This document shows, in pieces, positions 1,661-54,230 of a stretch of 64,000 nt of DNA. This DNA is from Sphagnum compactum (taxonomy: Eukaryota). Numbering within the stretch: the first letter of the stretch is position 1; the number at the start of each line of letters is the position of its first letter. The stretch is taken from NCBI GenBank assembly GCA_965153455.1, contig OZ234493.1:31114213-31178212 (forward strand), given 5' to 3'. Below the pieces are notes generated by a model, which saw nothing but the letters and a program-made list of their open reading frames with translations, was not told where the DNA came from and made no database searches. The translations under genes were made by a program, and so were the position numbers.

Positions 1661-1813
1661 ATGTTGTCATGCCCGTATGCATGGTTTCATACATGAGGTC
1701 GTTTATGGGCATGCCATTCATGCCTTTTAGGGTTAATGTACGCTCTTAGGGTTAGTGTACGTTCTTAAGTTACTGTACATTATTAAGTGTTTAGGGTTTC
1801 AACTTATTGGCAA

Positions 1814-1825
1814 CTATATAAAAGG
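1814..1825 (+). promoter_or_regulatory. TATA-box-like motif in the 5' terminal region of the retroelement
   Basis: CTATATAAAAGG followed by a pyrimidine-rich stretch, as is typical of LTR promoters. Confidence 0.35.
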
Positions 1826-2492
1826 CAAAGCCCTTCCCTTCTCTTGTTAGTTTTTCTAGAATTCCTTTGTCACGGAAAGTTTTCTCCATAATAGATTGGA
1901 TTTCTAGATGCTCACAACGGCCATTACACGACCACCGTTTACATACACTTCTTTTCTTTCCTTCTTTGCAACTCAATTTTAGAAAAACTATTCTCTATCA
2001 TTTAATGTTAAAAGCGGCAAATTTTTTACACATTTGAGTTCTTGAATTTATTTTTGCTACTAGTGTTGTTATTGCTAGGGTTGTTGTTGCTGTTGTTACG
2101 GCTGCTGGAAGGAGCTTGTGCTGTTACACCTCTACCAACCAAGGAGCTTGGAAAAGCGAGATCAAAGGGGGGAGTGATGTATTCTGGACCAGGTTTCAAA
2201 GTTGTTTTTTTTTCTCTCTTTCTTTTTTTCTCTCTCGTGTAGAGACATAGGAGGTTGAAGTTGCTGGAGCCAAGCGTTGCAATGAGTAAAAAAAAAAATT
2301 GCATCTACAACACCACGATCTATAGTGCAGCGAGCTGTAGCCCGGCGTTCGTAGCATTGCCACCCACCATCACTTCGAAGTTCACGGTCACTTCACAGCG
2401 CTGTGGCTGTCGTGTCGCTTCACGTTTGCCATCGTTGTCGAGCTCACGGACACCTCACAGCGCCGTGGCGCTCGTAGCACCGTCCGTCCATA

Positions 2493-2947: not shown

Positions 2948-4692
2948 ATGGGACAACACCATTCCTCAAATGATGAGAGCACTACCGCTCAACCAGAGCT
3001 AAAGTATCAGCTACGAAGTAACACACAATCATTTGAGCCGATTTCTTGAGCTCACGATCTTCACGACGGTACCATCAAGTGTCTATAATGCCATCGTCAT
3101 CCAGTACAACTCCTACCAGGAATTCAGGTTTAGGTTACACTACATCAACGATACATCAGAATCCGTTTGGAAAGGTCAATCAGTGGGTTACACCTGCGGC
3201 TGCACCAGCTTTCACACCATCACCTTATATTCCGCTGCAAGCCGTTACCTCTACACCCATATACACCATGGAGGTCAGCAGTTCCTTTGGGAGAATTGAG
3301 AAGTTTAGCGGAAGGCTAGATACCATTTCTTTGAAGGAGTTCAAGGCAACTTTCTCAACTGTGGTTTGTGAATTGGAGTTCAAGTATGGCGTTCATTACA
3401 CCGAAGCATTCGCATTCAAACAACTGGCCCGTTATGTGCACTATGAGGCATTGGATGTCTATGAGCAACATTTTCTGAGGATTTTGGGTGTCACCTAGAT
3501 CCCCAATCTACCTTATGCCATAGCCATCGCCACCGCCTCTCCAGTTACACTGCAATCTACCATTGCACATCATGGGACTATGCCCAATAATCCAGATCCG
3601 GTACCTATTTTATTAAACCTTTTTCCTCAACAACTCATTGCTACTACCATAAACATTCCTCCCACCATTGATGCACCAGCTTTTGTTGATCTAGTGGGGG
3701 AATTCTTTCGAATTCTTGAGCTGGAATTTTCGATAAATAGTTCTCAAAATTTTCTACAGCTCGCCACTTTCTTTCGGCAGAAGGATGAAACCCTCAAGAT
3801 GCTCTACAGAAGGCTTCTCAAGCTCAAAGAGGATACTGAGAGCATTACAGACGTGGAAGTTGCCCATTGGTATCTTTGTTTGTTGGAAGGTACTCCGACA
3901 TTCCATGCGCAGGTTTTGCAACGGGTTTTTGTAGAATTTGGAGACTCGTACACTTTGTTGGATGTGTACAACATTTCTGAAAAGCTAGAATTGGCTCATG
4001 CACACTATGAGGCCAATACTATGAGGCCTCCATCACGTTCAAGGCCTCATCCTCCACCAGTTGCGCCAACCAGATCATCACATTCTTCTTCAAGGGCGAA
4101 AGCAATGCACTTGGCTGCACCCATCCTACCTTCTTGCAACTACTGTGGCAATCCTGCCCACAAAGCTAATGAATGCAACATTCCTTCCGAGGATCTCCTT
4201 TGTGATTATTGTGGGAAAGAGGGACATCAAGAAATTGTTTATTTTGTCAAGTTCCCGGAACGGAAACAACTCCAATTACCACGACAAAATTTGCCAGCAT
4301 CTTTCGTTGCCCCTCAACCAAAAGCTAAGGCACCTCAGCCTTCCACTCAGGCTTTCCCCACCAAGGGTAATTCCAATAATAATGCTAAGAAGAAAGAACA
4401 CAAGGATGACAAAAGGGAGGCGCTTCAAGCCCATGTTGCTCAAGTTCAAACTTTGCAAAATGAACTCGAATCATTCAGGACTCAGCTTGCTAATCTAAAA
4501 GGCAAGTCTGCCCAACCAGCTAATCATGCCCAACTTGTACACGGTTCAGGATCATGGGAGGGACCTCCTAGGTCATTCTATGGCCTCCCACATGATGCCA
4601 TGGTTAGGGAATATGTTCTTTCTAGTGCACACAATTCTAGTCTCACACTAGAATTTGCCACTTCTTTTTGCCCTTCCTACTTCGCGACATAA
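2948..4692 (+). pseudogene. gag: gag with two zinc knuckles (disrupted)
   Basis: Likely ATG at 2948 (MGQHHS), frameshift near 3046, stop at 3496. CNYCGNPAHKANEC is a perfect CX2CX4HX4C; CDYCGKEGHQEIVY is a second knuckle with the last C changed to Y. Confidence 0.85.
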
Positions 4693-5399
4693 AAAGCCAG
4701 TGTGGCACCCAAAGTTTCTACCACTAGGCTGCCATTAGGCAAGTAATTTAGACTGATGGACTCGCATCTGGTTCAAGTCCTATTACCAAGGCTAGAGGAG
4801 CTCGAGTAGTCATGTCATAATCTTTTCGTCCTCTCAACACGGAAGAAGAACGCACCTTGTTGGCGAAGGGGGAAGAGACTACTACACCACAAGTTGCTAG
4901 GGCATCAAATTCTCATGTCCCAAAAGTACATGTACATTAGGAAACACACAATTTTCCACTGATCAGCTTATGGAGTGCCAACTTCAAATGCGTGAAGTGG
5001 CGCAAAAGCTTATGAATACACCATTGTTTAGTTTTCAAGATTTGAAGCTAAGCACCAGGGACATAATTACAATATTAAAGGATACCCTGAACACTACATC
5101 AGGCCCTATGCCAATCCCTGATCCACATGCTACAGGGGTCCCATCCAACACCTTGGAGAAACATTCAATTGGTTCACGTGTTGTAGATGGCATTCGTAAT
5201 TTGGTCATTAGTTCTAGCATGGCTAAACTAATGGGCTTTCTTACCTTTGATTCTACATTCACATATTAGAAGGGAGCTAAGAACACCTCACTTGTGGATT
5301 TGTTACTCAGCAAAGGCATTGTGGATAGCCATTCTCTCCACAAAGTTTCACACTCATTTCCGAAGGTGGTGCCTAATGAGAGAACTTCCATCGCCACCG

Positions 5400-5780
5400 G
5401 AATTGCCATTGTTGACAATACTAAATCAGCAATCTAGGTGGGAGGACATACACCCAGAGTGGTACTTCTTGATACAGGTGCCCAACCAGTGATTCTTCGA
5501 GTTCAATTCACCAAGAAGATGGGCATGCTTGACTTCAAACTATAAAAATTTATGTGACAAATTCGCACCACTAGTGGGAGCGTAGAGGAGGTATTTGGGG
5601 AGAGATCAGATTTGATTGCACTTAACTTCAATGAAGGTACAGATCAAGAGCTTTGCCTACTGGTCAGATGTTTAATCACCAATGCCACCAGTTACGATGT
5701 GTTCATTGGGCAAGAAGCCCTCTTTCCACCAGGTTTCACAATTAACAACTGGTTCGAGCATGCATACAACCGAATGGATT
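5400..5780 (+). pseudogene. Retroviral-type aspartic protease domain (disrupted)
   Basis: VVLLDTGAQPVIL with catalytic DTG at 5471, and YDVFIGQEAL near 5693 (C-terminal hydrophobic-G motif); interrupted by stops. Confidence 0.85.
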
Positions 5781-6120
5781 AGGAGACTGATGGCCACCAT
5801 CTGGGATACATACCCCTTGATTTACATGGGAACCAGAGTTCTATGGCTCACCATTATATGCTCAAGGAAGCACACACAATTTCCTACATCCAACAAACTA
5901 GCCACGAGTGGATAGAGGGAGATGAAGAGGAGACAGCTTACGCCCAAACTACTAAAAGGTTCAAGATGGTCCTACTAACATTCAACATGGACCAGAGGTT
6001 TTACAGAAGTTCAAAGCAGCCCACGAACCCTTGGTGAAAGGTTTATCTAGTTTTGAGAACATGGAGAGCCATGGCGAACTAATTACGCCAGTACTTCATG
6101 AGCTAATCACCTGAACACCG

Positions 6121-7060
6121 CCTAAGGAGGGGATTACATTACTAGAGCTCTTTGGTGGTATTGGTACAAGTCTCGAAGCCCTACTATAGTCAGGGATGGT
6201 GGTTCGGAGATATTTCTGCGTAGACATTGATCCTAATGCAAGGCAAGTGGCAGCATCGAGAATGATGGAGTTCACAACCATATTTCCACAACAGTTTGCA
6301 ACCACCGCATGGAAGGCCAGTTTCACTTTCTTGCCCTCTAACATACAACTAATTCAGAAGAGGCATATGGAATTACTCGGCCCTGTGGACCTCATCATTT
6401 CAGGTTGGGAGTGTCAAGGATTTTCAGCGGCTGGATTTAGAAAAGGCTTGAGTGACACAAGATCCGGTCTCTTCACGGACATGGTACGATTAATCACCTG
6501 GGCTCAATCCATTTCCCCTACGCTTGGTTATGTAATTGAGAACACCCCTTCTCAGCTTGACCAGAAGGAGAAAATCCAGGAGCAGTACACGCTAGTCAAA
6601 CATTACCTTGGAGAGCTGTTCTTATTCGATGCGGCACAATGCGGCTCCTATGCGCACCGGCTACGCAACTAGTGGACCAACCTTGCACCACTCTTAGTTC
6701 TGCAGTTGGCTCTTAGATACACCATCAGAGACCCCAACCTACAGGTTTTTCACATATTGGATGATCAAAGCTCCTGCCAACCAGTTACAAGGCAAAAAAA
6801 ACCTCCTTGGTTTCCTGCGAACATAATAGGAAAACCAAGAGGTGCTTGGCCCACCTTTGTCTCCTTCCCAGGAGCACACGCCTTTCAGGTAGATGGACCA
6901 GGTTTGGTGTATCGTCATGCTTCAGCCACTTGGGATGAACTAAGCCTAGAAGAAAGAAAAAGGGCTATGGGGTTCCAAACTGGCATTACTAGTCACACCA
7001 AGGTGACTAGAATGGAACGTAACGCTCTACTGGGGAGAGGCATGGACCTGAACTCCCTTA
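6121..7060 (+). pseudogene. C5 cytosine DNA methyltransferase domain inside pol
   Basis: One frame, canonical motif order: I LLELFGGIG (6139), II CVDIDPNA, IV VDLIISGWECQGFSAAG (Cys at 6412), V GLSDTRSGLF, VI YVIENT, VIII DAAQCGSYAHRLRN*WTN, IX ELSLEERKRAMGF, X RNALLGRGMD. In-frame TAG stops at 6187 and 6670. Confidence 0.93.
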
Positions 7061-7399
7061 CATGGTTATTGGTAACCTGTGTACTCTTTCAAATGTACAC
7101 AACACCAACACTGATTCAATCAGCTTTGAACTCTAGCGATGTAACTACATGGCACCCCGACCAAATACACTTGCCTATCTTCAACACTCTACATTTCACT
7201 CTTAGTGTTGGGGGGGAGGAGGTACCATGTAATTTGACTCAAATTATTTCTGATACACCTGGAGGTACATCAACTTCTGAAGAAACAATTACAACCTTCT
7301 ACGAATCTGCGTAGTTGGATAGTGGAGAACCCAATACACCAGGTTCTTCAGACACACTTTCCAATTCCATTCCATGCATTTCCAACTACCCTTTCGTTA

Positions 7400-8330
7400 C
7401 GGGGAACCAGCTCACCAAGAAGGAGAGAGCCCTAGTCACGGACTTACTAATTAAGTATGAGAATGTGTTTGCAATCTCAATGAAAGACTTAAACAGGTGT
7501 AAAACCATGCAGTTTTCTATAGACCTTACAGATGAACACCCATCTATCGGAGGAGGCATAGGTTGAGCAAGCATGAGTGGGAAACGATAGATGAAAGATG
7601 CAAAGAACTCCATGAGGCTGGTCTCATTCAGCCATCAAGTTCTGATTTTGCAGCCGCTACAATAATGCTAGCAAAGAAGGATTTAGTTGGATTATGGATT
7701 GAGAAAAGGATGTGCGGGGATTATAGGCCTTTGAACCTGGTTACACTTCAGGACAGGTACCCCATGCCCATCCTTGAAGAACTGTTTGATAACATTAGAG
7801 ACTCAAACATCTTCACAATTGTGGATCTCAGGCAAGGCTTCAACCAGATTGTGCTTGTTGCGAAGGATCGTAAGAAAACGACATTCCATGGAAACAACAA
7901 GTTGTGGGAATGGCTTGTGATGCCTTTTGGATTGAAGAATGCACCTGTCTTCTTTCTGGGAGTCATGGACCAGGTTTTCGAAGGGGCAAATTTCCTGAAA
8001 TGCTACATAAATGACGTCCTAGTGCATAGCAAGGGACTCATGTAGCACTTGGCTCATCTTGAGGAGTTATTCAAGAGGCTCCACGAAGTCAATATGAAGA
8101 TCCATCCTAAAAGTGTGAGTTTGCTGTCACTTCAATAATCTACCTTGGACACAAAATTTTGCCAAATGGTATTATGGCTCATTGGGCCAAAATAGTAGCC
8201 ATTTTGGAAATGCCCAATCCTACTACTGTTCTCACACTTTGAGGAGCTTCATCGGACTATGTAATTACTACAGGATTTATGTCGAAGACTTTAGTACTAT
8301 TGCTCATCCTCTATGCATTGTTAAAGAAGG
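7400..8330 (+). pseudogene. Gypsy reverse transcriptase (disrupted)
   Basis: RMCGDYRPLN, DRYPMP, DLRQGFNQI, MPFGLKNAP, YINDVLV (YIDD with D>N), LRSFIGLCNYYR; stops and frameshifts present. Confidence 0.95.
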
Positions 8331-8399
8331 ATGTTGCTTGGACATGAATGAAGAGGCTCAAGAAGCTTTCAACACACTCAAGGAAAAGCTTTCAAAGTT

Positions 8400-8800
8400 C
8401 CCCATTCTAAGAAGACCTGATTTCAGCAAAGGCTTTATTCGACACACTGACTAGAGTGCTTTTGGTATTGGTGTTATTATTGGCCAACTTGATGAGGAAG
8501 GCAAGGAATATGTTATCGCCTATGCATCCTGAAGCAAAAACAAGGCTGAGAGCAACTACTCTTCATACGAGGGGGAATGTCTTGTTGTTGTATGCGCCGT
8601 CATACATTTCAGGCCCTATCTTTATGGCACCGAATTCACTTTGTATACCGACCACCAGCCTATGAAGTGGTTGATGACCAATAACAAGCTTACTGGTAAG
8701 TTAGCTCGTTGGGCGCTTATACTTCAGGAGTACGAGTTCAAGGTTATTCACTAACCTGGTATTACACATCAGTATGCGGATACCATGTCGCGGAGACCCC
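8400..8800 (+). pseudogene. RNase H domain (disrupted)
   Basis: HTD*SAFGIG, YVIAYAS*S, NYSSYEGEC, FRPYLYG, LYTDHQP, LARWALILQEYEF, ADTMSR. Confidence 0.92.
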
Positions 8801-9099
8801 TCACTACCTCTGAAGATTTTTTAGAAGTCAGGCAAGACTTCGACCAGATTCTAGCAGTACATGTATCTTGTGCATCTAATTATCTTGCACTATTGCAATG
8901 TAACCTGGTTGAGCATCCCATTGTGGATATATGGGAGGCCCTGGACAGTCTGAGGTTTCTTTAACATGGGGAATTCCCTCCCCAAGTTACATCAAATCAT
9001 CGGGATGGCATACAACAACAGTCCAAACGCTACTCATGGAGGGACAGTCACCTCGTCCAATGTTTACCACAAGGCGACAGAGTGGTTCCTCCACCACAT

Positions 9100-9980
9100 G
9101 AACGGCTTAGTATTATTCAAAAGGTACACTCAGAGCTTGGACACTTTGGAGTTTAGCGTACTTATAGCCTTCTCGCTCCTCATTACCATTGGAGAGGTAT
9201 GTATGCTCAAGTCTGAGACATCATTGCTAGGTGTGAACAATGTGATAGAGTGAGAACTTCTTTCTCCTCTTGACAGCTCACGCTTTCTCCACTCCCTATT
9301 CAGGGCATGTTCTATTGCTGGTCATGTGATTTAATTGGAGAGTTACCATAGACCTCCAAGGGTAATGTTTACATCATGATTGTGATTGAGCATTTTTCAA
9401 AGTGGGTCGAACTTGTTGCACTATCGGACAAGTCATCACACAGCACCAGCCAGGCTTTCTTACAACAGGTCCTAAGTAGGTTTAGGGCTTGTGCTGAGTG
9501 CCTTATTAATCAAGGATCAGAATTCAGAGGAGAATTCCAAAACCTATTTGACCATGCTCTCATTGACCATTGCCAGACTTCAAGGGATCATCCCTAAGTA
9601 GATGGCCTTGTAGAAAGGATGGTTCAGACATGTAAGAAGGGACTTCGGAAGATTTGCTTCACTAAGAACAAAGAGGATTGGGACCTAGCCCTACCTTACA
9701 TCGCCATGGGTTATAAGATGTCCAAACATGCCTTTTTGTCTCATTTCTTTCCTTACTCTCTATTTTTTGGGAGACATCCCATTCCACCCTCTTCCATTGC
9801 TGCTCAAATGGACCAGGTTGTGGACTTGGACTCCCCAGCCGCCTGGGCTAGGATCATCGCAGAGAGGGCTGTTCTATTCAAGAGGGTTATGCCCATGGCC
9901 ATGGAGAACTTATCCATTACACATCATCGAAACACCTTATGGTATGCACACACACGAGGTGGCAGTTATAAACCTAAGGT
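9100..9980 (+). pseudogene. Integrase (HHCC zinc finger and catalytic core, disrupted)
   Basis: VHSELGHFG ... CEQCDR (HHCC), WSCDLIG, EHFSKWVEL, NQGSEF, DHP*VDGLVERMVQTCK, WDLALP, LFFGRHP. Confidence 0.92.
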
Positions 9981-10101
9981 GTGTTGGAGTTGGAAGGAGC
10001 TGACGAACGCACAATTCGGGATCACTCCAAAAATTATGCACCACGCCACCTGCTGAACTTAGATCCTACCATTATCACGTCAACTTGGACTTGACTATCC
10101 A

Positions 10102-10236
10102 TGTCAGGTATGTCAAAGGATAGACGATGTTGATTAGATGCTACTTTGTGATAATTATAATGGTGAATAACATCTATTCTGCCTCAAGCCGAAACTCACT
10201 CAAGTTCTCGTCGGCATTTGGTATTGTTCATCATGT
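10102..10236 (+). pseudogene. PHD finger at the integrase C-terminus (disrupted)
   Basis: CQVCQRIDDVD*MLLCDNYNGE*HLFCLKPKLTQVLVGIWYCSSC has C4HC3 spacing with the MLLCD and WYC signatures; one C>Y and two stops. It is missed by the ORF track. Confidence 0.88.
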
Positions 10237-11116
10237 TTTCCTGCAGCACTTGGATTTCTACTCGGACCATGCGTCAGGCGTCCGTTGAACTTTCATATAC
10301 ATGAGAATTTCATCTCAGCCCCCTTTTGTGCATTGTATGTATATGTGCGTGCATATCTTTTTGATTGATTAGTTTCTACCTTTGACTGGTTTTTATCTTT
10401 TTGTTTAGTAGAGTAATTATGGATTTACACCCTTATGACACTGTACGTCATGACACTACATGTTACGACAATATTGTTTTGATTTTTTCTAAAGATTTAA
10501 CATTTTTATGATGGGTGGTGGCGAATTATAACATGGAAAAGGTTGGGTAGAAATGTATAAATATGATATTGGTTTTTATATACTACAAACCTTAAGGCAC
10601 ACCAAGCTAAATGAGAAAGATGATGATGATAAGTATATCATGGGAGTCCATAAAATCAAGAAAGAAAATCCATCAAAAAAAACATTCATAGTTGATGGGG
10701 CGATGAAGATCATTAGATATACTAACTTCTTCACACCTTCTAAAATGATCTTGCCAAGAAACTAATTAAAGACCAAAATCCAGAAAGATATATAACAAAC
10801 AATACTTCTATGATTGAAACACAATCAAAAGATAACACTTCATTGAAAGAGAGCACCATAGAAATTCAATTATAGTCAAAACAATTATAGCAATGGATTG
10901 GTTTCAATCGAGATGCTGAAGAAGATGTGAGAGCAGACCAAACATATTCAAATTTGGTAAATTTTATTACCATCGGACAAGCTAAAAAGTTGATGAGATA
11001 GAATATCTGATATGGATGAAATTGGGAAAATTATAATAAGAGTCTTGAAAAGTGTATTGAACCAAAGTGTTAACATTGTTTAAAGAAAAGGCTTGAGGAA
11101 TTAACCATACCATTAT

Positions 11117-11354
11117 CACTATGAGAAAATTGTGTCTCTTGCAACTTGTCCAATGCAACTAAAAAGTGTTTGATAGAACTAGATTGCAACTAAAAAGTGT
11201 TTGATAGAACTAGATTACAACTAAAAAGTGTTTGATAGAATTAGATTCCAACTAAAAAGTGTTTGATAGAATTAGATTACAACTAAAAAATGTTTGATAG
11301 AACTAGATTACAACGAGATAAACAAGTTGCAATGGACATGATTTTCTCATAATG
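11117..11354. mobile_element. Non-autonomous CACTA (En/Spm) element
   Basis: Starts CACTATGAGAAAAT and ends ATTTTCTCATAATG; 33-bp TIRs match at 28/33; 3-bp TSD TAT at 11114-11116 and 11355-11357. Confidence 0.85.
11156..11314 (+). repeat. 31-bp tandem repeat x5
   Basis: CAACTAAAAAGTGTTTGATAGAACTAGATT(A/G/C) at 11156, 11187, 11218, 11249 and 11280, with no spacers. Confidence 0.95.
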
Positions 11355-20733: not shown

Positions 20734-23700
20734 ATGTCTTCAGTGCAGCTAGCACATGCACTGAAGCGCAAAGTGCAAAACCAGTCACGTTTCTTAACCC
20801 CAAAAAGGTATTCCCTCTTTCCCTGATGTTGTAAGTATGTGATCCACCAGTACTTCTTCATGTGCACAGTGGGAAAATTTTCTGAAACCAACCAACATCT
20901 GCTATTTTTTTTTCTGTTTGAGCAAACTAGGGTTTCCAGTAGCTGGTATGATGAAGGGTTCCACTAGTACATCTTCATGTGTAGCACAGTGAGAAGCTTT
21001 TCTGAAACCAACATCTACTCTTTTTCCCCCCCTGTTTTAGCAAATTAGGGTTTCCAGTAGCTGGCATGATGAAGGAAGGGTTCCAAAGAAGTGGAAATTG
21101 GATATCTTTTTGTGTTTTCTCTTGTAACTTTTCTCTTGTAACTTCTTGGATCTAGCTGTGAAACAAAGTCCTCAAGGTATATATATCCTGGGATATCTTT
21201 GACAATTGTCCTCAACCAGGGTATGGAGGGATTGAAATGATTTGTGTGCCTCATGCTCATTCCAATATCTCAATTTGTGCTAAATTGGGAGTTGTCAATA
21301 GTCAATTTTACAGGTTTTTGAGGCTTTTATAGTTGTAGAGAGTTCTTTGTCTCTTAGATGGTCAGTCTTATTGTCTTTCTGAAAAATAAATGCTACCTTC
21401 TAAAGGTTCTGTTAAAGAGGACTAGAGGGTTGCTCTATGAGGAAAAAATTCTTTTTCGAATTTCAGCATTTGGAGTATTTATTTTTGTTTCTTGGTCCTT
21501 TGTTCTCTGTTTTTGGAATTCTCTGTGGCTGGTTGAAAAAGTGTTAATCTCACTTAGCCTTTTCCTAATCATGAGAATGGAGATTTCTTGATTCTTATGA
21601 GAGATAAATCTTTTTGTGTTTTGCAGGAAAGCGTTGGCAGTTGTAGCTGTGGTGTTATTTGCAGGAGGTGGATTAGCATATAATCACTCCAATCGTCAGA
21701 GACAAAAACCCATCCACCATCCCCTTGCACATGCAGCTGATACAGATGATGGAGAGGAGGTGGCCAGAGTGGCTGCAAAGGGAAGGAGTAGTGGAGTTTT
21801 GCAGAAAGGGAAACAGAAGAGGGGTGGGCTGAAGTCAGTGAAGGTGGTCAGTGCAATCCTTCTGGCACACATGGGGAAGCGAGGCATGGAGAATTTAGTG
21901 TCTTTGGCTGCCATTGCGGTATGAGGCCGGCCCTTTCTACTGTCAGACAACACATGTTTGCTGAAATTATTGAATGTCCTGATGAACTTTGCAAGATTTT
22001 AGTGTCAAGTTTCTGATGCACTCTTTTAACACAAAGTCTCATCTTCTGTTATTTGTATGCTGGTTGTGCACTTTGATTTTGTTTTTGTTTGCATTTTTCT
22101 GTCGGGATGCCCTATTCACTCTTTCTCAGTAATTTTATCTCCACAATTTCAAAGTTGGACATTGGAATATATCATTGTTTTAGTGATTAGGTTTGTAAGC
22201 CAATGAGGTGTGAAAACATGCATAATGTGATGATGATGATGATGGAGCAGGTGTTGAGGACAGCATTGGGGAACAGATTAGCCCGGGTGCAAGGATTTTT
22301 GTTCAGAGCTGCGTTCTTGCGTCGTGTACCCCTCTTCATGCAGTTGATTACGGAAAATCTGGTGTTGTGTCTTCTGCAATCTGTTTTGGTATCAACCACA
22401 AGGTTCCTGACTGGGACTTTAAGTCTATGCTTTCGGAAGATCTTGACTGATCGGGTCCATGCTGATTATTTCCAGGTGGGTTTTAGCTTCTGAAATCCAG
22501 GGAGAGGGAATCTATATACCTTCAGGGATCTCCTCCTTGCCTAATACTGTCAGTAACAAAAAGTGGAAGAATGTATATGTGCTTGTGATTTTCTAGGAGT
22601 GACACAGGCAGGTGGGTGCAGCAAGACAGTGGCCTGAGTTTTTCCTTCTGCTGAATTCTTCTTTTTGGGATCTGTTTTCCAAAAATTCATTGTGTGGACT
22701 AAAACTTTGCTGGCTGTGGCAGAACATGACATATTACAAGATGTCGCATGTGGATCATCGAATCAGCAATGCGGAACAGAGAATAGCCAGTGACATTCCA
22801 AGATTTTGTGCAGAACTTAGTGACCTTATACAGGAGGACATAATGGCCATTTTTGATGCATGTCTCTATACTTGGCGATTATGTAGTTATGCCCATCCCA
22901 AATATGCCTTCAGCATATTGGTATGTGACTTCTTGCTCATTTTGGTGTCAGTTTGATTTGGGTTCTGTTGAGAATTTCTGCTGTGGTACTAGTTGACAGA
23001 TTGGGTCCCTAGGCTATCTGGCAGTTCTTGGTCTCATAATTTTAGCAATGTTTGAAATTCATAGTCCTTGATTGTTTTGCCGCTCATTTGAGGTGTTTTT
23101 GTGGTTTCTAGTTTGGTCCAGGGAAAAAGGATCTAAAATGGGTTCAGTGATGTTCCATGTAGGCTTATGTGTTAGGGGCTGGAGTAATAACGGGGGCCCT
23201 CTCACCACCGTTTGGGAGGCTAATGTCAACTGAGCAGCAGCTGGAAGGGGAGTATAGGCAGCTGCATTCACGAATCCGAACACATTCTGAAAGCATTGCA
23301 TTCTATGGAGGACAAGTGATTGAGGCATCAATCATAAAGCAACGGTTCAAGGCACTTGTAAAGCATCTGGGCAAAGTGCTGCACACACAGTGGTGGTTTG
23401 GCATGATCCAGGACTGTTTCCTGAAATATCTTGGAGCCACTTTTGCTGTTGTCCTCATTATTGGACCCTTCTTTGGAGGCAACTTGAGACCGGATAGTTC
23501 CACACTTGGCCGTGCCAAGATGCTCAGTAATATGCGGTATCACACTAGTGTGATTATCTCCCTGTTCCAGGCCATGGGTACTCTTGCCAGCAGCTCTCGC
23601 CGTCTTTCTCGTGTCAGGTTAGCCTACTTGCACAGCCAATTGAGCATGCTGTTTCAGTCAAAATCAGTACTGTGATCACTGTGTTTTGAAGTGTAACAAT

Positions 23701-26700
23701 GACTCCTTGCATCTTTGTGTGTCCGATTTGCAGTGGGTATGCAGATCGCATTCGTGAGCTTATCATGATAGCAAGAGAGTTGCGAATCGCTGGTGGTAGC
23801 AAGGTTGTTAGTAACAGAGACAGTGACAGCTACTTTGTGGAAGCAAAATACATTGAGTTTGAAGGTGTGAAGGTTAGTTGCTGATTCAGCCTGGTTCATT
23901 TTTGTTTGTGTCAGCTCACTTTGCCATTGTCCGAATTTTAGGTTTGGTTATCAATCTATCAGCATGATGCAGGTAGTAACACCCACAGGCAACATTTTGG
24001 TGGAAGACTTGACATTGAAGGTGGAACAAGGCTCAAATCTTCTTATCACTGGTGTGTCTTTAACCTAACCTTCCAGCTCTCTTAGGAGAATAAATGCATG
24101 CCTGTCATGTGATCTTAGCCTTCTGAAGTGTCCTTCAGTTTGATCTCATTGGGGGCAAACAAAAGTACGGATGTACTATGTGTTTCTTAGTCTGGCTTAT
24201 GTGGATACCTGTTGCAGGACCAAATGGTAGTGGGAAGAGCTCTTTGTTTCGGGTTCTGGGAGGGCTTTGGCCTCTAGTGGCGGGCCGAATTGCCAAACCT
24301 GGAACAGGAGCAGATTTGAGCCATGAAATTTTCTATGTACCTCAGCGACCTTATATGGCAGTCGGAACTTTGCGTGACCAGCTCATTTACCCACTTACTT
24401 CTGCAGAAGAAACAAAGCCACTGACGATCGATGGCATGCGTGAATTGTTGAAAAATGTAGTGTGCCCTTTTTCTCTCCTTTTGTAGGGGTCAGTCACTAT
24501 AGTCGTGGGAAGATGGACAAAGGTGAATTTTTTTGAGTAAGATTTGCAACTTAAAAGGTTTTCTCCATACAACATCATCCCATGTGCAACTCTGCATGTG
24601 ATTGGTAAAATCAGTTCTAGTCTGCAAATTGTCTTTGCTGTTGTTTTGTGGCCAACCTTTGTCAGTGCCCTCTGATGGAGTCAATTATTTTCTCGAGTTT
24701 AGGTGGACCTGGAATACTTGCTTGACCGCTATCCGCTAGAAGAGGAATTGAACTGGGGGGACGAGCTGTCACTCGGAGAGCAGCAGCGCCTTGGCATGGC
24801 TCGTCTCTTCTATCACCGTCCAGCTTTTGCAATCCTGGATGAATGCACCAGTGCTGTCACCACCGACATGGAGCAACGCTTCTGCAACAAAGTGCGCGCA
24901 ATGGGCACATCCTGTGTCACCATCTCTCACCGTCCTGCACTTGTGGCCTTCCATGACACTGTTCTTTCCCTTGATGGTGAGGGTGGCTGGAGTGTTCACT
25001 ACAAAAGGTTGGGACTTAATGTGGGTTTCAATAAGTTCTGAATGTATGCTTTTATCCTGGTTATACATCAGTTCTACAAACCACTAGATTAGGGTTTCAC
25101 ATGGAGTAAAGTCTTAAGAACCTCGGTTTCTCTTTTTTATTGAGTTCAAGAACTGTGACAGTGATTTGAATTTCATTTTTTTTCTTCAGAGAAAACCCAT
25201 TGGAGATCCTTTTGGAGGAGAAGAATGATCATGAAGACGGTGAACTGCAATCAGATTGCAAGTCAGGTGCAATGGTAGTCCAAGAGCATTTTTTGGCCTC
25301 AACAACCAAGGTACCTATTATTACCTTGTGCAGTTACACAATTCCTTTGTATGTTGACCCTCATAGATAATCAATATGGCTGGATGATGTCTACAGTTGC
25401 AATGTTATTCAGGTTGCATTTTTTTTGAGATCAATTTTCTGTTCTGCAATTTGTCTTACTATGGTTTTTTGCAGGACACACATAATGACTCACAAGCAGA
25501 TGATGCATATGTGAGCACTATATTGGCAACATCTCCTCCCCCTGACCCTCTTATGCCTATTCCATTGGTCCCAAGGTTGAAAGCAGAACCTCGAACGACA
25601 CCTGCCCGAGTCAGCTCCTTGTTGAAAATTTTGGTAAGTCTGACCTAGCCACAACCGTATGTGGGTTCATGCTGGGAGTGGCTTGGAAATTGGTAGTTGC
25701 TTACGAAGGAAAACATTTTCACGGGTGTGATTTGTAGGTTTTCTCTCTTATCTTGATTGAGAACTGAGATATCTGGCATCTAACTATCCCTGACACATGT
25801 AGAACTGCCATCTGGAGTTTTGAGCAACAATCAGTTATTCCCAAACCTGCACTAGTTTCTGATTACAGTGAGGACTTCTAGATGTTGTCTTAATAGTCCA
25901 AAGAAAGGGTTTCCGCATCCATGTTACAGATCTGGGTTCAGTTCTGAAGGTGGTCATGGCTATGGGTAGGTACCAACTATATTGGGTAAGCAAGGAGGTC
26001 AGCTCCTGGCTGTGGCACTGCTTGTTGTGAGCCGTACATGGATTTCTGACCGCATTGCAGATCTCAATGGTAAGCTGTTTGTTGAGTGACCATCCTTCTG
26101 TGATAGTGTGATGCTCTTGCTGGTCAGTAGAGGCTATTGTGGTAAAATTTAAAAGCCAGAGTATAGTTGCCCTGACTATGGGTTGATTGGGATTGGCAGG
26201 CACAAGTTTGAAGCACGTTTTGCATCAAGACAAAGTGGCTTTTATTCGTTTAACGGGCATAAGTGTACTGCAGAGTGTTGCCTCTGCCATTGTTGCTCCA
26301 TCACTCAGGTCTTTGAGCACCCACCTCTATTGGATCTCACTCAATTTCCCCTTTACATTTCTCTACAGAGAGCTTGAGCCATAGTTTTGAGACCTGTTGT
26401 GGCAAAATGGAGTGTCTTAGGCATGGCTGGTGCCTTTGATAGCTGACATGGGTGCTCTTTTTCTTGATCAGGAATTTGACTGCTAAGCTAGCTCTAGGTT
26501 GGCGATACCGGTTGACAGAGTCTCTCTCCAAACTGTACTTCCAAAATAATGCATACTATAAGGTCAGATGCCCACACATTTTCAGCTTTCAGAGAATTGC
26601 AAAGGGCCTTATTTAGGGACCACCTTGTAGGTGGTCTCTAAAGCTGCCTTCTCTTCATGCAGCTACAAGTATGATCAAGGTGTTGATACCCAAGGGCTGG

Positions 26701-29700
26701 GGCATCATCTATAAGTTGCATACAGAAGCAGAGGTTGAATGGTGTTATTATCCAATGACAATATTAAAAAGGATTTGTTCTATAAGTACTGGGAATCGGG
26801 GGCGTTGCAGGCGGTGCACTTGTCTGAAAGTGGCATGGATGCTGACCAACGGATAACACAAGATGTGGACAAACTTTGTGGTGATCTTTCGGGACTGGTC
26901 ACAGGCATGGTGAAGCCTCTGGTGGATATTCTATGGTGAGTTAGAGCTCCCAAGTTGTCAGCTTCTGTTCTACAAGAGGCTTCTGCTATCTGCAAGCTAA
27001 CAAAGTGGGTTGGGGGGGAGGAGGCTATTTCAGCAGAAAAGAGCCTGCAATATGTCATTTCTCTGAAACTTGAAGTTGTGGGAGCTGTGAATGGGGGTTG
27101 CAGGTTCACCATGCGAATGAAAAGCCTCACTGGCAGGAGAGGGGTGGCTATCTTATATGCATACATGTTTCTGGGCTTGGGTTTCCTGCATGCTATTACC
27201 CCTGATTTTGGAGCTTTGTCAAGCAAAGAACAGCAGCTTGAGGGTTATTTCAGGTATGGAGTTCTGTCCAAAAGTGTGGCATGAAGAGCTCCTACTTGTG
27301 TTGAAAAAAATGTGTATCATGGATGTGCTGTGATTTTTTTCCCTGCAGGTATGCACACTCCAGGCTTCGTACACATGCAGAATCGGTGGCTTTTTTTGGA
27401 GGAGGCTCACGTGAACAAGCAGTAAGAATTACCAACTCTAGTTGAAGTTATCATCTCTAGTGCCAGTTTGTACCCTTGTCAGTATGGTTTTGTGGCTTGG
27501 ACTTCTTAGAGACTACTACGATGCTTGGAGATGGTTCAAAGAATATGGTGTGGTGTTGAAGACTAGAATGAGAGATTCATCTGGGTTCATGCAGGTGGTT
27601 GAAGGTCGCTTCAAAACCCTGCTCACACACTCACACAAGCTACTGAGGAAGCGTTGGGTATTTGGAATTGCTGATGAGTTTCTAACCAAGCAACTGCCTC
27701 ACAATGTGACATGGGGGCTTAGCTTACTGTACGCAGTTGAGCATGGTGGAGACCGTGCTCAAGTCTCTGTTCAAGGTTGGTTGTTTCCCTTTGTGTTTCA
27801 TATTCAAGGTATTGCATGTCCTTGAAGGGTTTAGGGTTTAGGGTTTTCTAAACCCTAAACCCAGTCACTTTCTTCTATTGCCTACAAGTTACTAGAGAAG
27901 AATTGGGTAGCTCATCTTATCATTCACTAAGGTATAAGATATGGGGTCTGCAGCGGAGCTGGCACATGATCTGCGCTTCTTAGCATCAGTCGTTTCCCAA
28001 AGCTTTCTTGCATTTGGGGATATTATGGAGCTCTACCGGAAATTTGTGGAGCTCTCAGGTGGAATCACCAGGGTTTCCGAACTGGAAGAATTGCTTCGTG
28101 CAGCCCAGAATGGTGAGTGTCACCATTTCATACTGTAGACTGGCATGAGCTTCATTTCCTTCATGAATATGGTTTGTTTCGGGTTGTTTTGAGATGTTCA
28201 CTTTCTTATGGCAGAGTAACCTGCAAAAGTTCTGGGTTCAAAACCATTTTACTTAGGACTTCAAAACCAGTTCACAGCTTTGCAGTGAAGTCTTGTGTAC
28301 TTTTGGATGATTTGTTTGTAAAAGGAAACTGCTGGCCATGTTAGGTTAAAGAATTAGCATTGTTGATAGTAATGGCTGTCCTGTCACTGCAGATACAAAG
28401 ATTCCAAAGTCATCAAGCCCATCCCCAAATCCTTTGTTAATGATAGAGCAACAAAGGAAATTTCCTGTCAACAACGGTATTGTCTTCTCCGAGGTGGACA
28501 TAGTTGCACCTGGGCAAAAGTTGCTTGCTCGCAAGTTGTCTTTCCGGATCAATTCTGGTCAGAGCATGCTTGTCACAGGTCTGCTACTGCCGCTTCCTTC
28601 TTAAATGGATGAAGTTGATGGAATCATTTGATCTGTTGCATATGCTTGTGGCAGCATGTAGCCTAATGAGTTTGAATAAGAAATATGGGGATCAAACCTT
28701 CTTCAACGTGGGTGCCCTTTTCATCTTGCAAAAGTGATGGTTCTGTGGATGCTTTCAACAACTCTTGCATGTCATGGAAAATCTCTTTGCTTTGGCACAC
28801 ATGATGGAGTGCTTCTGTATCTGATGGGTCATGGGGTATAGGTCCAAATGGAAGTGGAAAGAGCTCACTGTTCCGGGTGCTTGGAGGGTTGTGGCCAATT
28901 GTGAGTGGAAGCATTGCAAAGCCAGGCATGCTCCTAACAGATGGAAATAATGAGAGTACAGGTTTAAGCCATGAGATTTTCTATGTTCCACAGCGGCCAT
29001 ACACTGCCTTGGGAAGTCTTCGGGATCAGCTGATCTACCCACTGACTCTTGCAGATGCCACTAGAAAAGTCCTACAAGACAATGAACAAGATAGCTATAT
29101 CAATGGTAACTAGTTTTTCTCAGATCTCTTTACTCCTTGCTGGTACCAGGATCAACAGTAGGCCTTGATGTTCCCAGCAAAATGAATGCCCAATATTGCA
29201 TATCTATGGACTCTAGGAGGAGAGAATCACATTCCCAATGGCACTTGCTATTGCACAACATCTGTGCATAGATTCTTCTTTCAAAAGGAAGTACACCAAG
29301 TGAAGCAAACTAATGTTTCTGTGGTTTTCTGAATTTTGTATAGGAATGGGGAGTCCTTTAAGTGTGCAGACAAGTACTCCCCAAAATGCCATAGAATTGC
29401 TGGACCAGAGGTTGCGATCCATATTGGAAGATGTAAGGCTTGTTTATTTGCTCGAGCGTGAAGGAGGCTGGGATGTGACAGCAAACTGGGAAGACATGCT
29501 GTCGCTTGGAGAACAGCAACGCCTTGGCATGGTATGTTAGTGTCCTTCCCCAAAAAGGTTCTCAAGATTCTGCTCTTAGGCAACATCAGTGCAGTCAGTA
29601 AATATATATATGGTGATTGCCAAAAGATCATGAGCTGAGAGGCCCAAGAGCTGGAAACTAATGGATCATGCTTTTGCTTTTGGCAGGCGCGGTTATTTTT

Positions 29701-30648
29701 CCATCATCCAAAGTTTGGAATCCTGGATGAATGTACCAAGTAAGTCCCATCTCCTGCACATCATCAAGACACATTTTTTGATTTCAGTAGTGCTGATGTG
29801 CAATTTGGATCACATTGTTCAATGTCTGTATAGTCTTCCCTTCTCTGTATTTCTTCTTCCCTGTTCTGAAGTCACCTATCTGGAGTTTTTCTTTGACTTG
29901 AAAGGAAAGCTTTTTTCACAGGGTTCTGAAACTTTTAGCATTGTGAGTATGGAGATTTACTGATACTCATGAGAGTTTATTTTGATGTTCAAATTGTTGC
30001 TAAAGCATCAGCCTTAGGCATGAAAAGAGGTGTGTCAAATTTGAGAATGTGCCTGATCAGATGCACTGCATCTTTCTGCAGTGCTACAAGTGTGGATGTT
30101 GAGGAGAGTCTTTACAAACGAGCTCAGGCTCTTGGAATTGCTGTTGTCACCATCTCACAGGTTTGCTCAAACCTCATGTATTTTCACAGTTGGTTTTTAT
30201 TTTGGTGTCAGAATATAGCGCATTTGGCACATTTACAGAGCATTTGGCATGGGATTAAAAGTGACAGGGTAGCAGTGTCTTGGCCATGCTACATGCAGCT
30301 ACCCAGCACAATGTACCACATGTACATTTTCCAGGGCTTATATTTATGGTGCTGTAGCTGAGCTGATATGCAAGCTGACAGTCAGTCCTAGAAGCTTTAC
30401 TTTGGAGACAAGTGACTTCTTGTCACCAGGTGTCTATGATCAGCAAGATTGGATGTGCCAGTTGAAGACTTACAGTCCATTTGATGTGTGATCAGAAGAC
30501 CTTGAACCACTTTGAGTCTCAGATGATTTACCTTGTGAAAGTGGTGATGTTTCTGCAGCGTCCAGCATTGATACCTTACCACTCAATGGAGCTCCGCTTG
30601 ATTGATGGTGAAGGAGGTTGGGAGCTACGATCAATCAAGCATGACTGA
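20734..30648 (+). CDS. ABCD1: Peroxisomal full-size ABC transporter, subfamily D (PXA1/COMATOSE/ABCD1-like), 25 exons, about 1377 aa
   Basis: GT-AG exons joining in frame: 20734-20807, 21627-21918, 22251-22475, 22723-22920, 23163-23617, 23734-23872, 23973-24051, 24218-24456, 24703-25007, 25190-25310, 25475-25633, 25970-26069, 26200-26308, 26472-26562, 26811-26935, 27104-27253, 27349-27421, 27595-27775, 27954-28112, 28393-28578, 28842-29105, 29344-29531, 29687-29739, 30082-30160, 30559-30648. Two Walker A (GPNGSGKSS), two [15 protein letters not shown] signatures, ILDECT Walker B, and EAA-like [10 protein letters not shown] / [10 protein letters not shown]. Confidence 0.96.
20845..21085 (+). 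repeat. About 120-bp imperfect tandem duplication in ABCD intron 1
   Basis: TCTTCATGTG..TTTTCTGAAACCAAC..TAGGGTTTCCAGTAGCTGG(T/C)ATGATGAAGG occurs twice in succession. Confidence 0.8.
27826..27862. repeat. Head-to-head plant telomere repeats in an ABCD intron
   Basis: AGGGTTTAGGGTTTAGGGTTTTC followed by TAAACCCTAAACCC. Confidence 0.8.
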
Positions 30649-35091: not shown

Positions 35092-38000
35092 ATGGACAAT
35101 TTGTTAAGGATGGAGACAATGATCAGTACAAACTCATGGTCAAAACTGGTTTTTGAACCTGGAGAGGAGTTTGACAATCGCCTCATTACCAACATGGGTA
35201 ACTTCTCGATGTATACATGGGCATTGATAATTGCTGGCACTTTCACACTTTTTGCTCTCAGCCTTTCGTCACACCTTCTCCGAAGCCATCTTTCCAGCTA
35301 TAACAATCCCAATGTGAGAATTTCTCCATCTTTCCAGCCTATGTAACAATCCAAATGTGAGGTTTATTTTTCTGACAGAAGTTTAAAAAAAAAGAAAAAA
35401 GTTGGAACTTTTCTCCTCATTGATTTTTTTTTGCACGGACTGGATTGCCTGGTACTTGTTCCAACGCAAATTCATATGTGAAGAATAAGAAGAAGTATCT
35501 GGTGTCAGATTTGTATCGATTTTTTGCATGTGGGAAATTTATTCACAGTTTTTGCTTCTTTCTGGAGTGGGTCATGGATCAGAGATGCAGTTGTTTCTGC
35601 TGTGGAATTTGTTGTCGTTCCAAAATATCTGAATTTGACCTTAACTTGATCCATGGTTGATGGAGTCATGGGTGGGTGATGTATGTGAAAGTCTGCTTCT
35701 TTCTCTCATGGGTTTAGTCAAGTCATAGAATCAACATATTGTGGTGCCTTAGATGATCTTTGCTATTATGAAAGTTGACTGGATTGAAGTTAAATCAGTC
35801 CTTGGGGCAAGAAGAAGCAGATATGATGATTAATCTTCACTGGTTTTCTCTTTTTGTGTTTTCCCTTTGCAGGAGCAAAAATGGCTGATCGGTATTATAT
35901 TGATGGTTCCTGTTTATTCAGTCACATCGGTAACAGAACTTTTCACTTCATTGAGCTATCACTTTGTATTCCTGTTTCATACTAGGGAGATGATTTCTGT
36001 GCCAGGGTCTCAGATTACCCGAGCCTCCTTTTCTAGATCTGCAGCCTTTTAAAAGAAACAAAGAAAAAAGATTGTCCACATCCAATGCACAGAACTTTTT
36101 TCTTCTCATTTGCTATGCTCTTGCATAGGCTGCAGTTCTTATCATTGTCGAAGCCCAGATATGCTGTGTACATTGCAACATTGGGAGAATGCTATGAAGC
36201 ATTTGCTCTTTACTCCTTTGGGCGCTACCTGATTGCCTGCCTAGGTGAATATCCCCTCATAATGCTCCAATTGCTCTACTATTTTTTTCCCTAATTTGAT
36301 CTTAGCAACTACGCTGGAAATCTGGATACATATATATATATATATATATGATTTTTATTTTATTTTTAAAAACAAAATCCTCGACACTTACTTGTACAAT
36401 GTGACATTTAGCCATCTGGGAAAATACTTTATAGATGGGTTTATGGGTGGGTTTGTGAATTTGAATTGCCCATTTGCATATGTGCAATTAACTTCAGTGT
36501 TGATTTGTACGTAGGTGAAGAGGAGATGGCAGTTACAAGGTTGGCAAAACAAGGATCAGACAAGGAGTTCATGCACAGTGGGCTGTTACTGGATGAAAAA
36601 TCAGGCTCAGACCATCATGATTTGGTGGCACATCCTGTTCCTCTCAAATGGTGTCTGGATCCATGGCGACTCGGTCGCCAATTTTATGACACGACCAAAT
36701 TTGGCATTGTGCAATATGTAAGACACTTGTGTTATTATATCACAACCACATAATCAATCGGTCATTCTCATTACTGTTATGTTGCAAATATATAGCCGAT
36801 TTTGGGAAAATGTCCTTGGATGAATTTCTTTTCACCTTTTATCCATTGAAGCCGTTGATCAAGAACGGGAGGATGAGAAATTATCCTTCCAAGGATTTTC
36901 CAGTATATATATATACATACTGAGAGCGTTCGTTTGATGAGTTGGAGTTTTTAGTTTTTACGTTACAATTAATTCTAGACTTGGGCCACCTTTGCAGAGA
37001 GACATCCAGATTCTGAGTTTCCAGGTTCAGGGTTTAGGGTTTAAACCCTAAACCCTTTACCCTTGCTCAAAGAATTGGATGTTTTTGGACTTGAGAGATC
37101 TCATGCAAGCAAGTCACTGGGGTTTTTTTACATTGCAGATTATAATGAAAGTGCTGGGATCATGGGCTGCTCTCATCCTGGAGATATTCGATAAGTATGG
37201 TGAAGGCGATTTTGATTTTTCAAAGGGGTAAAACATTTTCAGTACATTTCTGGCATGCTTGGTTCTTTTTCTGTCATCCTTTCTGCAAATGGGATAGCTT
37301 CCATTTTAGCTCTGAGCCTTTCTGCCTTACCCTTCTGTAGTATGTGCTTATATAGCCCTTGTCTCCCAAGGTGGATTGTCACATAAATGTATGCCTCAAT
37401 GTAAAGAGCTATGAGGAGTTTTCTAGTGTATTTGGAGGTAACCATATATAGGGCAGAAATTTTTCATCTGCAAAAGGGTGAGCATTTCAAAAAGCAAAAT
37501 GTATGTTTTTTTCTTGAAGGTTTTTGTTGAACATTTTCCTTCTTTGCATTTTCTCTAACAGCAAATTGTGTGGGGAATTTCTTGGGGCAGGTACCCGTAC
37601 ATAACAGTAGTTCAAAATTTTAGCCAATTGTGGGCGCTTTACTGTCTTGTGAAATTCTACCAGGTCACCAAGCACGAGCTCCACGAGATCAACCCATTAG
37701 CCAAATTCCTTTGTTTCAAGGCAGTTGTGTTTGTCACATGGTGGCAAGGTGTGGTAATCGCATTGCTGTTCACCACTGGCATTGTCACAACCCAACCTGC
37801 ATCTCCCCACAAACCCAGTGACAATGCACCTGCAGAGCAGCTCCAGACCAGCCTCCAGAACTTCATTATTTGCATTGAAGTAAGTTTCTCTTGTCTTGTG
37901 CAGTTCCAGGGAACTATGAAGCTCAATTGCATTGTACAGTTACACATAGAAAACTCACAACCATAAGATGATCTTTGAGTTTTCTAATACGATAAATTGA

Positions 38001-53099: not shown

Positions 53100-54230
53100 T
53101 TGAGAGGTAAAGGCTTAACTAAAAAGAGATAAAGGTTTTGTTGAAAGGTATAGGTTTAACCAAAAATATATAAAAGAATTGTTGGGAAGTAAGAGTTTAG
53201 CCAACAAAGAGAAATGTTTTGTTGAGAGGTCGAAGTTTAGCTAAAAAAAGATATAGGTTTTGCCAAGAGTTAAAATTTTAGCCAAATATATATATAATTT
53301 TTGCCAAGAGAGAAAAAATTAGTTAAGAAAAAATATAAGTGTTGCCAAGAGTTAGAAAATTAATTACGAAAAAATATAAGTGTTGCCAAGAATAAATATA
53401 AGTTTTAAGTTTTGCCAAGAGATAAAAGTTTAACCAAGAAGAGATATAAGTTTTGCCAAAAGTTAGAATTTAGCCAAGAATAGATATAGGTTTTGCCAAA
53501 AGAGAAATGTTTAGCCAAGGAGAAATATAAATTTTGCTAAAAGAAAAAAGTTTAACCAATAAGGGATATAGGTTTTCCCAAGAAAGAAAAATTTAACTAA
53601 GAAGAGATATAGGTTTTGCCAAGAGAAAAAAGTTTAGCCAAAAAGATATGTAGGTTTCACCAAGAGATAAAAATTTAGCTAAAAAAATATATTGTTTTGC
53701 CAAGAGATAAAAGTTTAGCCAAAATATATATATAAGTTTCCAAGAGAAAAAATTATAGCTACGAAAAGATATAGGTTTTGCCAAAAGAAAAAAAGTTTAA
53801 CCAAGAATAGATATAGGTTTTGCCCAAAAAAAAAATTTAGCCAAGAAAAGATATAGCTTTTTCAATAGAGAAAAGTTTAGCCAAAAAAGGATACATATTT
53901 TGCCAATAGGAAAAAAAATTAGCTATAAAAAAATATTGGTTTTGCCAAAAGATAAAAGTTTAGCCAAGAAAAAATATAGAGCTTGGCTAGTTTTTCTAAA
54001 CTCACACTAGTGTGAGTGTTTGGTAGCCTTAGCTCGTATTTCTAGCATGGAAAAAGGCCCAGCTACATTGTAGAAGGTCATTGCTTCCTGCTCTTATGTC
54101 GTCCCCTGGGCGTTTTTGCCAAGAAAAAAAAGTTTAACCAAAAAGAGATATAAGTTTTGCCAAGAGATAGAAGTCTAGCCAAGAATAGATATAGGTTTAG
54201 CCAAGAAGAAATATAGGTTTTGCCAGGAAA
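53100..54230 (+). repeat. Degenerate tandem array of about 41-bp bipartite units
   Basis: Consensus GCCAAGAGATAAAAGTTTA-GCCAAGAAGAGATATAGGTTTT repeated about 20 times, interrupted at about 53985-54110. Confidence 0.9.

Follow-up and report, generated by a model that had tools for sequence, protein, structure and literature searches.

Chromatin readers and DNA methylation writers in retrotransposons are already in print, although the PHD-bearing Gypsy elements, the Gypsy elements with a DNMT3 and the elements combining a reader with a writer have each been described separately. Among the known systems closest to the element reported here is KnitGypsy-Dnmt3 of Klebsormidium nitens (de Mendoza et al. 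2018, PMC5890265). Its Gypsy pol ORF includes a DNMT3-related domain free of introns, and its repeats have a DIRS-like A-coding-B-A-B layout according to the legend of Fig. 4c. The main text and three supplements of that paper do not mention "PHD". In Chlamydomonas reinhardtii, Gypsy-7a_cRei is described as carrying a PHD finger in its Gag-Pol and as having an intergenic bias for which a targeting role was proposed (bioRxiv 10.1101/2022.06.16.496473); REM1 and CR1-like PHD elements are cited alongside it. PMC6673714 and bioRxiv 2021.11.30.470311 likewise describe Gypsy polyproteins with PHD fingers, for which a role in targeting is proposed. Finally, EpiLTRs and DAM-chromoviruses (bioRxiv 10.64898/2026.05.21.726589) and CopiaMBD (PMC6673714) are reported to bring methylation writers and a chromatin reader into retrotransposons.

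Here we analysed a 64,000-nucleotide stretch of the genome of the moss Sphagnum compactum (the window), which contains a Ty3/Gypsy element with both a DNMT3-like domain and a PHD finger. The moss element has the same-ORF methyltransferase and the repeat layout of KnitGypsy-Dnmt3, but its host is a land plant and its domain pair is also found in named chlorophyte relatives. Gypsy-7a_cRei differs from it, by description, in having paired LTRs and no described methyltransferase. In the EpiLTRs, DAM-chromoviruses and CopiaMBD the reader is a chromodomain or an MBD and the writers are DAM and a DNMT4-related enzyme, whereas the moss element has a PHD finger and a DNMT3-like domain. The domain order, the frame, the position behind a barrel and the conservation of the PHD finger are direct observations. 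We favour, with moderate confidence, the reading that the feature in the window is the decayed C-terminal PHD finger of a Ty3/Gypsy integrase and that such a finger, kept on the integrase, docks the complex on nucleosomes with low H3K4 methylation.

Element anatomy and reading frame

The features of the window copy are as follows.

1661..1664, no strand: left 4-bp target-site duplication, three of four bases matching the right one (end mapping)
1665..1970, + strand: terminal repeat A, starting with TG, about 312 bp in young copies (repeat comparison)
2970..4900, + strand: Gag-like region, broken, presumably gag by its position and Cys/His knuckles (without a Pfam match above cut-off)
5430..5720, + strand: aspartic protease, broken, approximate (mapped from the sister ORF)
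6100..7070, + strand: DNMT3-like cytosine methyltransferase domain, three stops (PF00145, 38.4 bits)
7600..8150, + strand: reverse transcriptase, frameshifted, approximate (PF00078)
8350..8735, + strand: RNase H, approximate (PF17917, PF17919)
9088..9258, + strand: integrase H2C2 zinc domain (PF17921)
9313..9630, + strand: integrase DDE core (PF00665)
9630..10101, + strand: integrase C-terminal helix and predicted SH3-like barrel, with deletions of 112 bp (near 9977) and 8 bp (near 10089)
10102..10236, + strand: PHD finger, pseudogenised, two stops and seven of eight zinc ligands (PF00628 and ligand reading)
10293..10470, + strand: terminal repeat B, terminating in CA (repeat comparison)
10471..10474, no strand: right target-site duplication (end mapping)

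The PHD finger is interrupted by two stops, TAG at 10135 and TAA at 10168. With X at these stops, its read-through translation matched PF00628 over model positions 1-47 of 47 (34.7 bits, E = 1.8e-8), above the gathering cut-off of 24 bits; the PHD of an intact sister copy scored 42.8 bits. It was the single match to a PHD-like pattern in the six frames of the window, and the zinc domain and core of the integrase precede it. The sequence-only reading had proposed a C4HC3 PHD finger hidden by two stops. The finger and its stops were confirmed, but the C4HC3 set is incomplete in this copy, where Tyr replaces the fourth Cys; Leu also replaces the Pro of the P-x-G-x-W pocket. The window copy has 26 in-frame stops and several frameshifts, and its identity to a young sister is 90%. 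It is dead and decayed, does nothing itself, and no host function was seen for it.

A DNA search of the moss's own 382-Mb genome gave 157 candidates, and all of the 40 that were scored matched the element. Among 29 sister loci, the spacing between integrase and PHD was 612 nt in 22, 606 nt in one and off by 1-2 nt in six. In the window the spacing is 492 nt. The two linker deletions there total 120 bp; therefore integrase and PHD share a frame, while the linker stretch between the deletions is out of frame. Nine of the 29 sister copies are stop-free from the integrase core to the end of the PHD, and 28 have a conserved stop six codons past the last PHD Cys. All eight ligand codons without a stop were found in 11 of the 29, including one copy (L007) that is frameshifted near its end. 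These counts bear out the proposal that integrase and PHD are in frame in the family. One of 10 full-length copies examined has a single ORF of at least 2,467 aa, in which a protease (PF13975, 25.8 bits, below the cut-off of 28.2), DNMT, reverse transcriptase, RNase H, integrase and PHD follow one another. Since this natural ORF holds all the domains, the earlier claim that DNMT and PHD belong to one polyprotein is true for the family, whose polyprotein is Ty3/Gypsy Gag-PR-DNMT3-like-RT-RH-INT-PHD with the PHD as its last domain.

The PR-RT-RH-INT order with a DDE integrase, the TG...CA ends and the short target-site duplication are those of Ty3/Gypsy elements, but split A/B repeats take the place of two complete LTRs. 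Like the Gypsy-DNMT3 elements, the family has DIRS-like split repeats and a DNMT3-related domain with its catalytic residues kept inside the pol ORF. The 4-bp target-site duplication was exact in eight of 10 sister copies, mismatched in one and absent from one. Among 10 copies, seven had the layout A-coding-B-A-B and three A-coding-B; the window copy is A-coding-B, its second A-B pair being absent. Repeat identity was 99-100% in the youngest copies. An exact 17-mer from the 3′ end occurred 106 times in the genome, often twice per copy, compared with 0 for a control.

Several further observations were made on the repeats and copies. The inner B-A junction of the 3′ repeats (L031, L033, L035, L037, L039 and L045; compare window 1665-1970 and 10293-10470) forms a CA-GC-TG palindrome that joins both integrase-type ends in six of seven copies, and a G run lies directly ahead of the first B and not ahead of A, which suggests a circular or end-templating intermediate for the DDE integrase. 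At G000:C1:1359019-1360013, three 3′-end motifs are spaced 489 bp apart, and the A-B unit appears to have expanded there into a tandem array. The young copy L035 (repeats 99.4% identical) is without about 720 bp corresponding to window 6345-7067, most of the DNMT domain. Metatranscriptome contigs from four moss or plant sets matched the stretch in short, diverged pieces, for which DNA carry-over is possible.

Position behind the integrase and predicted histone target

Chromoviruses, as described in PMC3605345 and PMC6317226, likewise have a histone-reader module directly after the SH3-like integrase C-terminal domain. Their reader is a chromodomain and their mark H3K9, whereas the moss element has a PHD finger and a predicted H3K4 mark. 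The C-terminal 210 residues were modelled with AlphaFold (mean pLDDT 82.6, pTM 0.41); besides the PHD, the model contains a long helix and a small beta-barrel. Model residues 81-147 resemble many SH3, Tudor and KOW barrels, RSV integrase being a middling match (Z 6.3), and Pfam SH3_Tf2-1 gave no match on the linker before the PHD. Going by this predicted model, the barrel would be the SH3-like C-terminal domain of the integrase. A Foldseek resemblance to the Tudor-PHD pairs of UHRF1 and PHF1 was rejected as homology, the rmsd of 12-18 Å indicating two separate common folds. The PHD starts 75 residues past the GD of the barrel, and the chromodomain of a chromovirus from the same genome starts 84 residues past the matching motif at the start of its SH3 domain. 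The PHD thus occupies the chromodomain place of chromoviruses, as had been proposed from the window.

A protein query with integrase and PHD, which is biased towards PHD carriers, returned 184 relatives, of which the best 120 were listed. No chromodomain was matched in the window read-through up to 10368 or in the intact sister ORF, in agreement with the earlier view that none precedes the element end, and the precomputed domains of the 120 relatives listed included PF00385 only as a weak match in P0072. A PHD plus chromodomain combination in P0072 was rejected; it is a merged gene model, and the weak match belongs to the tail of a second integrase. Integrase identity to chromoviruses of the same genome was 24-26%, compared with 42-56% within the PHD clade. 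Therefore, no recent swap between PHD and chromodomain took place, and the two domains fill one slot in distant lineages. The same genome has at least two chromovirus families in high copy number (L103, L105, L107-L132) that combine SH3 and chromodomain and include open frames of 1,299 aa; they are a possible control for insertion bias.

Conservation of the PHD was assessed in 118 relatives from this query (integrase identity 42-56%). Seven zinc ligands are kept in at least 117 of them, and all have C or H as the eighth. The position two residues ahead of the ligand His, which we take to be the cage Trp site of H3K4me3 readers, is Gly in 112 and Trp in none. The family thus lacks the aromatic cage of H3K4me3 readers of the ING/BPTF type, the cage being that named in PMC8166343. 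An Asp follows Cys3 in 113 relatives, and the P-x-G-x-W pocket has Pro in 115, Gly in 89 and Trp or Phe in all 118. A cage-less finger with P-x-G-x-W and Asp after Cys3 is typical of H3K4me0/me1 readers such as ATXR5, BAZ2 and KDM5-PHD1. In the structure of a rice Ehd3 PHD, as reported in PMC13022364, the Pro/Gly and Asp residues contact H3 Ala1 and Arg2; single PHDs of Ehd3, a close sequence match, are stated there not to bind H3K4me1 alone. For the cage-less BAZ2 PHDs, similar binding to K4me0 and K4me1 is reported, about 6- to 11-fold stronger than to K4me3 (PMC4291147).

The top sequence matches among solved structures were the PHDs of CHD4, WSTF, KDM5, KMT2C/D, ATXR5 and BAZ2, with UHRF1 PHDs also among the matches, and the top structural match of the PHD model was an ATXR5 PHD-H3 complex (Z 9.4, rmsd 1.3 over 52 residues). 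The ATXR5, BAZ2A/B and KDM5 PHD1 fingers have the fold and the cage-less H3-tail surface in common with the moss PHD; they belong to host proteins and their binding has been measured, whereas the moss PHD is known from sequence and a model. Because the cage Trp is absent from all 118 relatives and the best match is the ATXR5 PHD, the moss PHD is predicted to bind, probably, H3 tails with K4 unmethylated or singly methylated. The opposite possibility, that the PHD reads H3K4me3 and sends copies to active promoters, is very improbable. A Met at the cage-flanking position in 95 of the 118 relatives would suit it, but the missing cage Trp and the absence of ING, BPTF or PHF2 PHDs from the best 60 of 80 solved matches speak against it.

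In some readers K4 is contacted by an acidic residue; hand mapping places Ala at this position in the moss family and Glu in 60 of the 118 relatives. The absence of the acidic residue from the moss family, like the Ehd3 result, counts against the favoured reading. The dN/dS of the PHD was 0.31 over 29 copies, compared with 0.30-0.57 elsewhere in pol; for shared variants it was about 0.32 and for singletons 0.76, over 45 codons only. When the PHD was modelled together with residues 1-32 of the host H3 and two zinc ions, the score of 0.30 fell below the mark of 0.34, and the prediction was counted neither way.

Proposed role in integration and insertion sites

Ty3/Gypsy protease processing frees the integrase from the polyprotein. 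In the moss family, the protease would release an integrase still carrying its PHD, and the PHD would tether the integration complex to nucleosomes with a free H3 N-terminus and K4 unmethylated or singly methylated. New copies would then be biased from H3K4me3-marked promoters into non-coding chromatin. Such a role would parallel the job of the chromodomain in chromoviruses, via another mark.

Insertion sites were compared using one 5-kb flank of each of 20 copies (18 beyond 3′-end 17-mer matches and two beyond mapped ends) and 20 arbitrary stretches. The flanks were more AT-rich than the controls (GC 0.325 vs 0.371, p = 0.019) and had fewer ORFs (141 vs 223). Repeat coverage, tested within the 41 sequences compared, was not enriched (0.069 vs 0.063, p = 0.75), and CpG depletion did not differ (p = 0.30). 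Host-gene domains were found in three of the 20 flanks and four of the 20 controls; the controls also included one plastid-derived and one Copia stretch. With no repeat enrichment, no CpG difference and gene domains in three flanks against four controls, there is no pointer to heterochromatin, and nested insertion into repeats or CpG-depleted DNA was rejected, the 20 flanks resembling the 20 controls in both respects. The pattern fits avoidance of coding DNA, through targeting or selection, and the AT bias can stem from selection against genic insertions or from a DNA preference of the integrase. AT-rich flanks could also be promoter-proximal, as an H3K4me3 reader would require. The PHD-bearing Gypsy-7a_cRei is reported to insert into intergenic DNA 2.6 times above chance (bioRxiv 2022.06.16.496473).

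These data also bear on the possibility that the PHD persists for a function other than choosing sites, such as general docking on nucleosomes that makes integration more efficient, recognition of H3R2 or of the free N-terminus whatever the state of K4, a part in integrase assembly, or acting as a decoy for silencing readers of the host. The flanks without heterochromatin or repeat bias, the fact that the best-kept surface residues serve H3 Ala1 and Arg2 rather than K4, the UHRF1 PHDs among the matches and the proposal in PMC6673714 that captured readers may act outside integration are all consistent with it. We consider it unlikely, however, as the PHD sits in the chromodomain slot, the flanks are AT-rich and ORF-poor, and an intergenic bias has been published for a PHD-bearing Gypsy.

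Other sequences around the element and in the genome were noted. In the window, host genes lie at 21600-30400 and 36400-39400; they encode an ABC transporter whose two halves resemble each other (PF06472, PF00005) and a protein like organic solute transporter alpha (PF03619). Tandem arrays with units of about 41, 47 and 31 bp lie at 53110-54220, 61377-62263 and 11125-11345, respectively. A stretch of a nuclear-scale contig (L096, G000:C19:3000001-3005000) has plastid cemA, ycf4, petA and an accD-like ORF in long open frames and is probably a recent plastid insertion. Two small unplaced contigs (G000:C281 and C514) carry clustered histone genes, with H3 scores slightly unlike those of the chromosomal copies, which may come from another organism.

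The methyltransferase and the history of the pairing

The best solved match of the sister-copy DNMT was DNMT3A (E = 1.8e-9). Among 111 relatives, the catalytic Cys and the Glu-Asn are each kept in 105 and the two Arg of Arg-x-Arg in 107 and 104; motif IV has an unusual GW-x-CQ form, which is characteristic of the clade and not a sign of decay. ADD domains read unmethylated H3K4, and in ADD-DNMT3 enzymes the reader adjoins the catalytic domain in one mature protein. In the sister ORF, however, the DNMT has no reader domain of its own and is separated from the PHD by 1,063 residues, with reverse transcriptase and RNase H in between; the best Pfam match of the PHD is PF00628, and no ADD family is listed.

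Among the 120 relatives listed of 184, 108 carry both DNMT and PHD (seven with a weak DNMT match), 10 the PHD only, some of these being partial, and two the DNMT only. The named ones are from Haematococcus, Tetrabaena, Pleodorina, Chlamydomonas, Hariotina and Tetradesmus, and most others are metagenomic proteins. The C. reinhardtii protein CHLRE_09g398141v5 (P0064) falls in the clade of the moss element and has a DNMT-like region that has diverged (79 bits). The matches listed for the integrase-PHD and DNMT queries included no sequence named K. nitens. A query with the DNMT only gave 11 matches, nine with an integrase and seven of these with a PHD; since two of the nine are without it, the PHD is dispensable in some lineages.

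Trees were built with IQ-TREE in a quick run (36 of 122 rows) and with FastTree (122 rows), leaving out proteins with tandem-duplicated domains (P0003-P0005) or without full reverse transcriptase, RNase H or integrase. In the branch of the moss family, the DNMT precedes the reverse transcriptase; most other branches have it behind RNase H (SH-aLRT 100). Its absence with the PHD kept requires at least two changes on the tree (starred branches), and the PHD was lost while the DNMT stayed in P0035 and P0124 and is degenerate in P0038. Across the relatives listed, the PHD lies constantly about 160 residues behind the integrase core while the DNMT shifts slot; therefore the PHD travels with the integrase and not with the DNMT, although the pairing itself is ancient. 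In 102 of 118 relatives (P0007-P0121), the C-terminus extends more than 100 residues past the PHD (median 313) with no Pfam domain listed, and the moss family stops after six. P0129, a protein of 4,100 aa with PF12237, a reverse transcriptase and a related C-terminal DNMT but no integrase, is possibly a DIRS-type element with two methyltransferases.

The sequence-only reading had joined PHD and DNMT into a self-contained epigenetic module. In such a scheme, the PHD would do in trans what ADD does for animal DNMT3, and the new copy or its surroundings would be methylated only on H3K4me0 chromatin. Several observations agree with it: the 108 of 120 relatives listed that carry a DNMT absent from the query, the PHD in seven of nine integrase-bearing matches of the DNMT-only query, a DNMT with catalytic residues kept and no reader of its own, and a predicted PHD mark equal to that of ADD. 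Co-occurrence is, however, expected by descent, and the 1,063-residue gap, the losses of each domain without the other and the change of DNMT slot argue against an ADD-like module. The DNMT of the Klebsormidium element was inactive in yeast, a result that its authors call inconclusive (PMC5890265). We therefore regard the coupled scheme as quite unlikely. The self-contained module was not upheld; what stands of the proposed epigenetic pair is a shared polyprotein and a conserved PHD with the sequence features of H3K4me0 readers, whereas the two do not appear to form an obligatory unit. Under the favoured reading, in which the PHD acts on the integrase, the DNMT3-like domain would be a second passenger, probably acting on the element's cDNA or new insertion, as PMC5890265 proposes for enzymes of this kind; it would work apart and need no PHD as a covalent ADD-like partner.

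Neither the pairing of DNMT3 and PHD, nor its presence in both chlorophytes and a land plant, nor the existence of two slots for the DNMT was found in the open-licence literature, including PMC6317226 and PMC12344493, as far as these texts are accessible; the figures and main supplement of PMC5890265, the bioRxiv supplements and Repbase may show them. We give little credence to the idea that this old green-lineage Gypsy clade rebuilt the logic of animal DNMT3 from separate parts, with the integrase PHD sensing H3K4me0 and, within the integration complex, licensing the element's own DNMT3 to methylate the new copy. If true, one histone mark would decide both landing and self-silencing. The present analysis turns one alga's published oddity into a lineage with a DNMT3 and a PHD-tailed integrase, extending from chlorophytes to a land plant and using two DNMT slots. 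In this lineage, the PHD finger may be a second solution to chromatin-guided integration beside that of the chromoviruses, which predicts that new copies would avoid H3K4me3.
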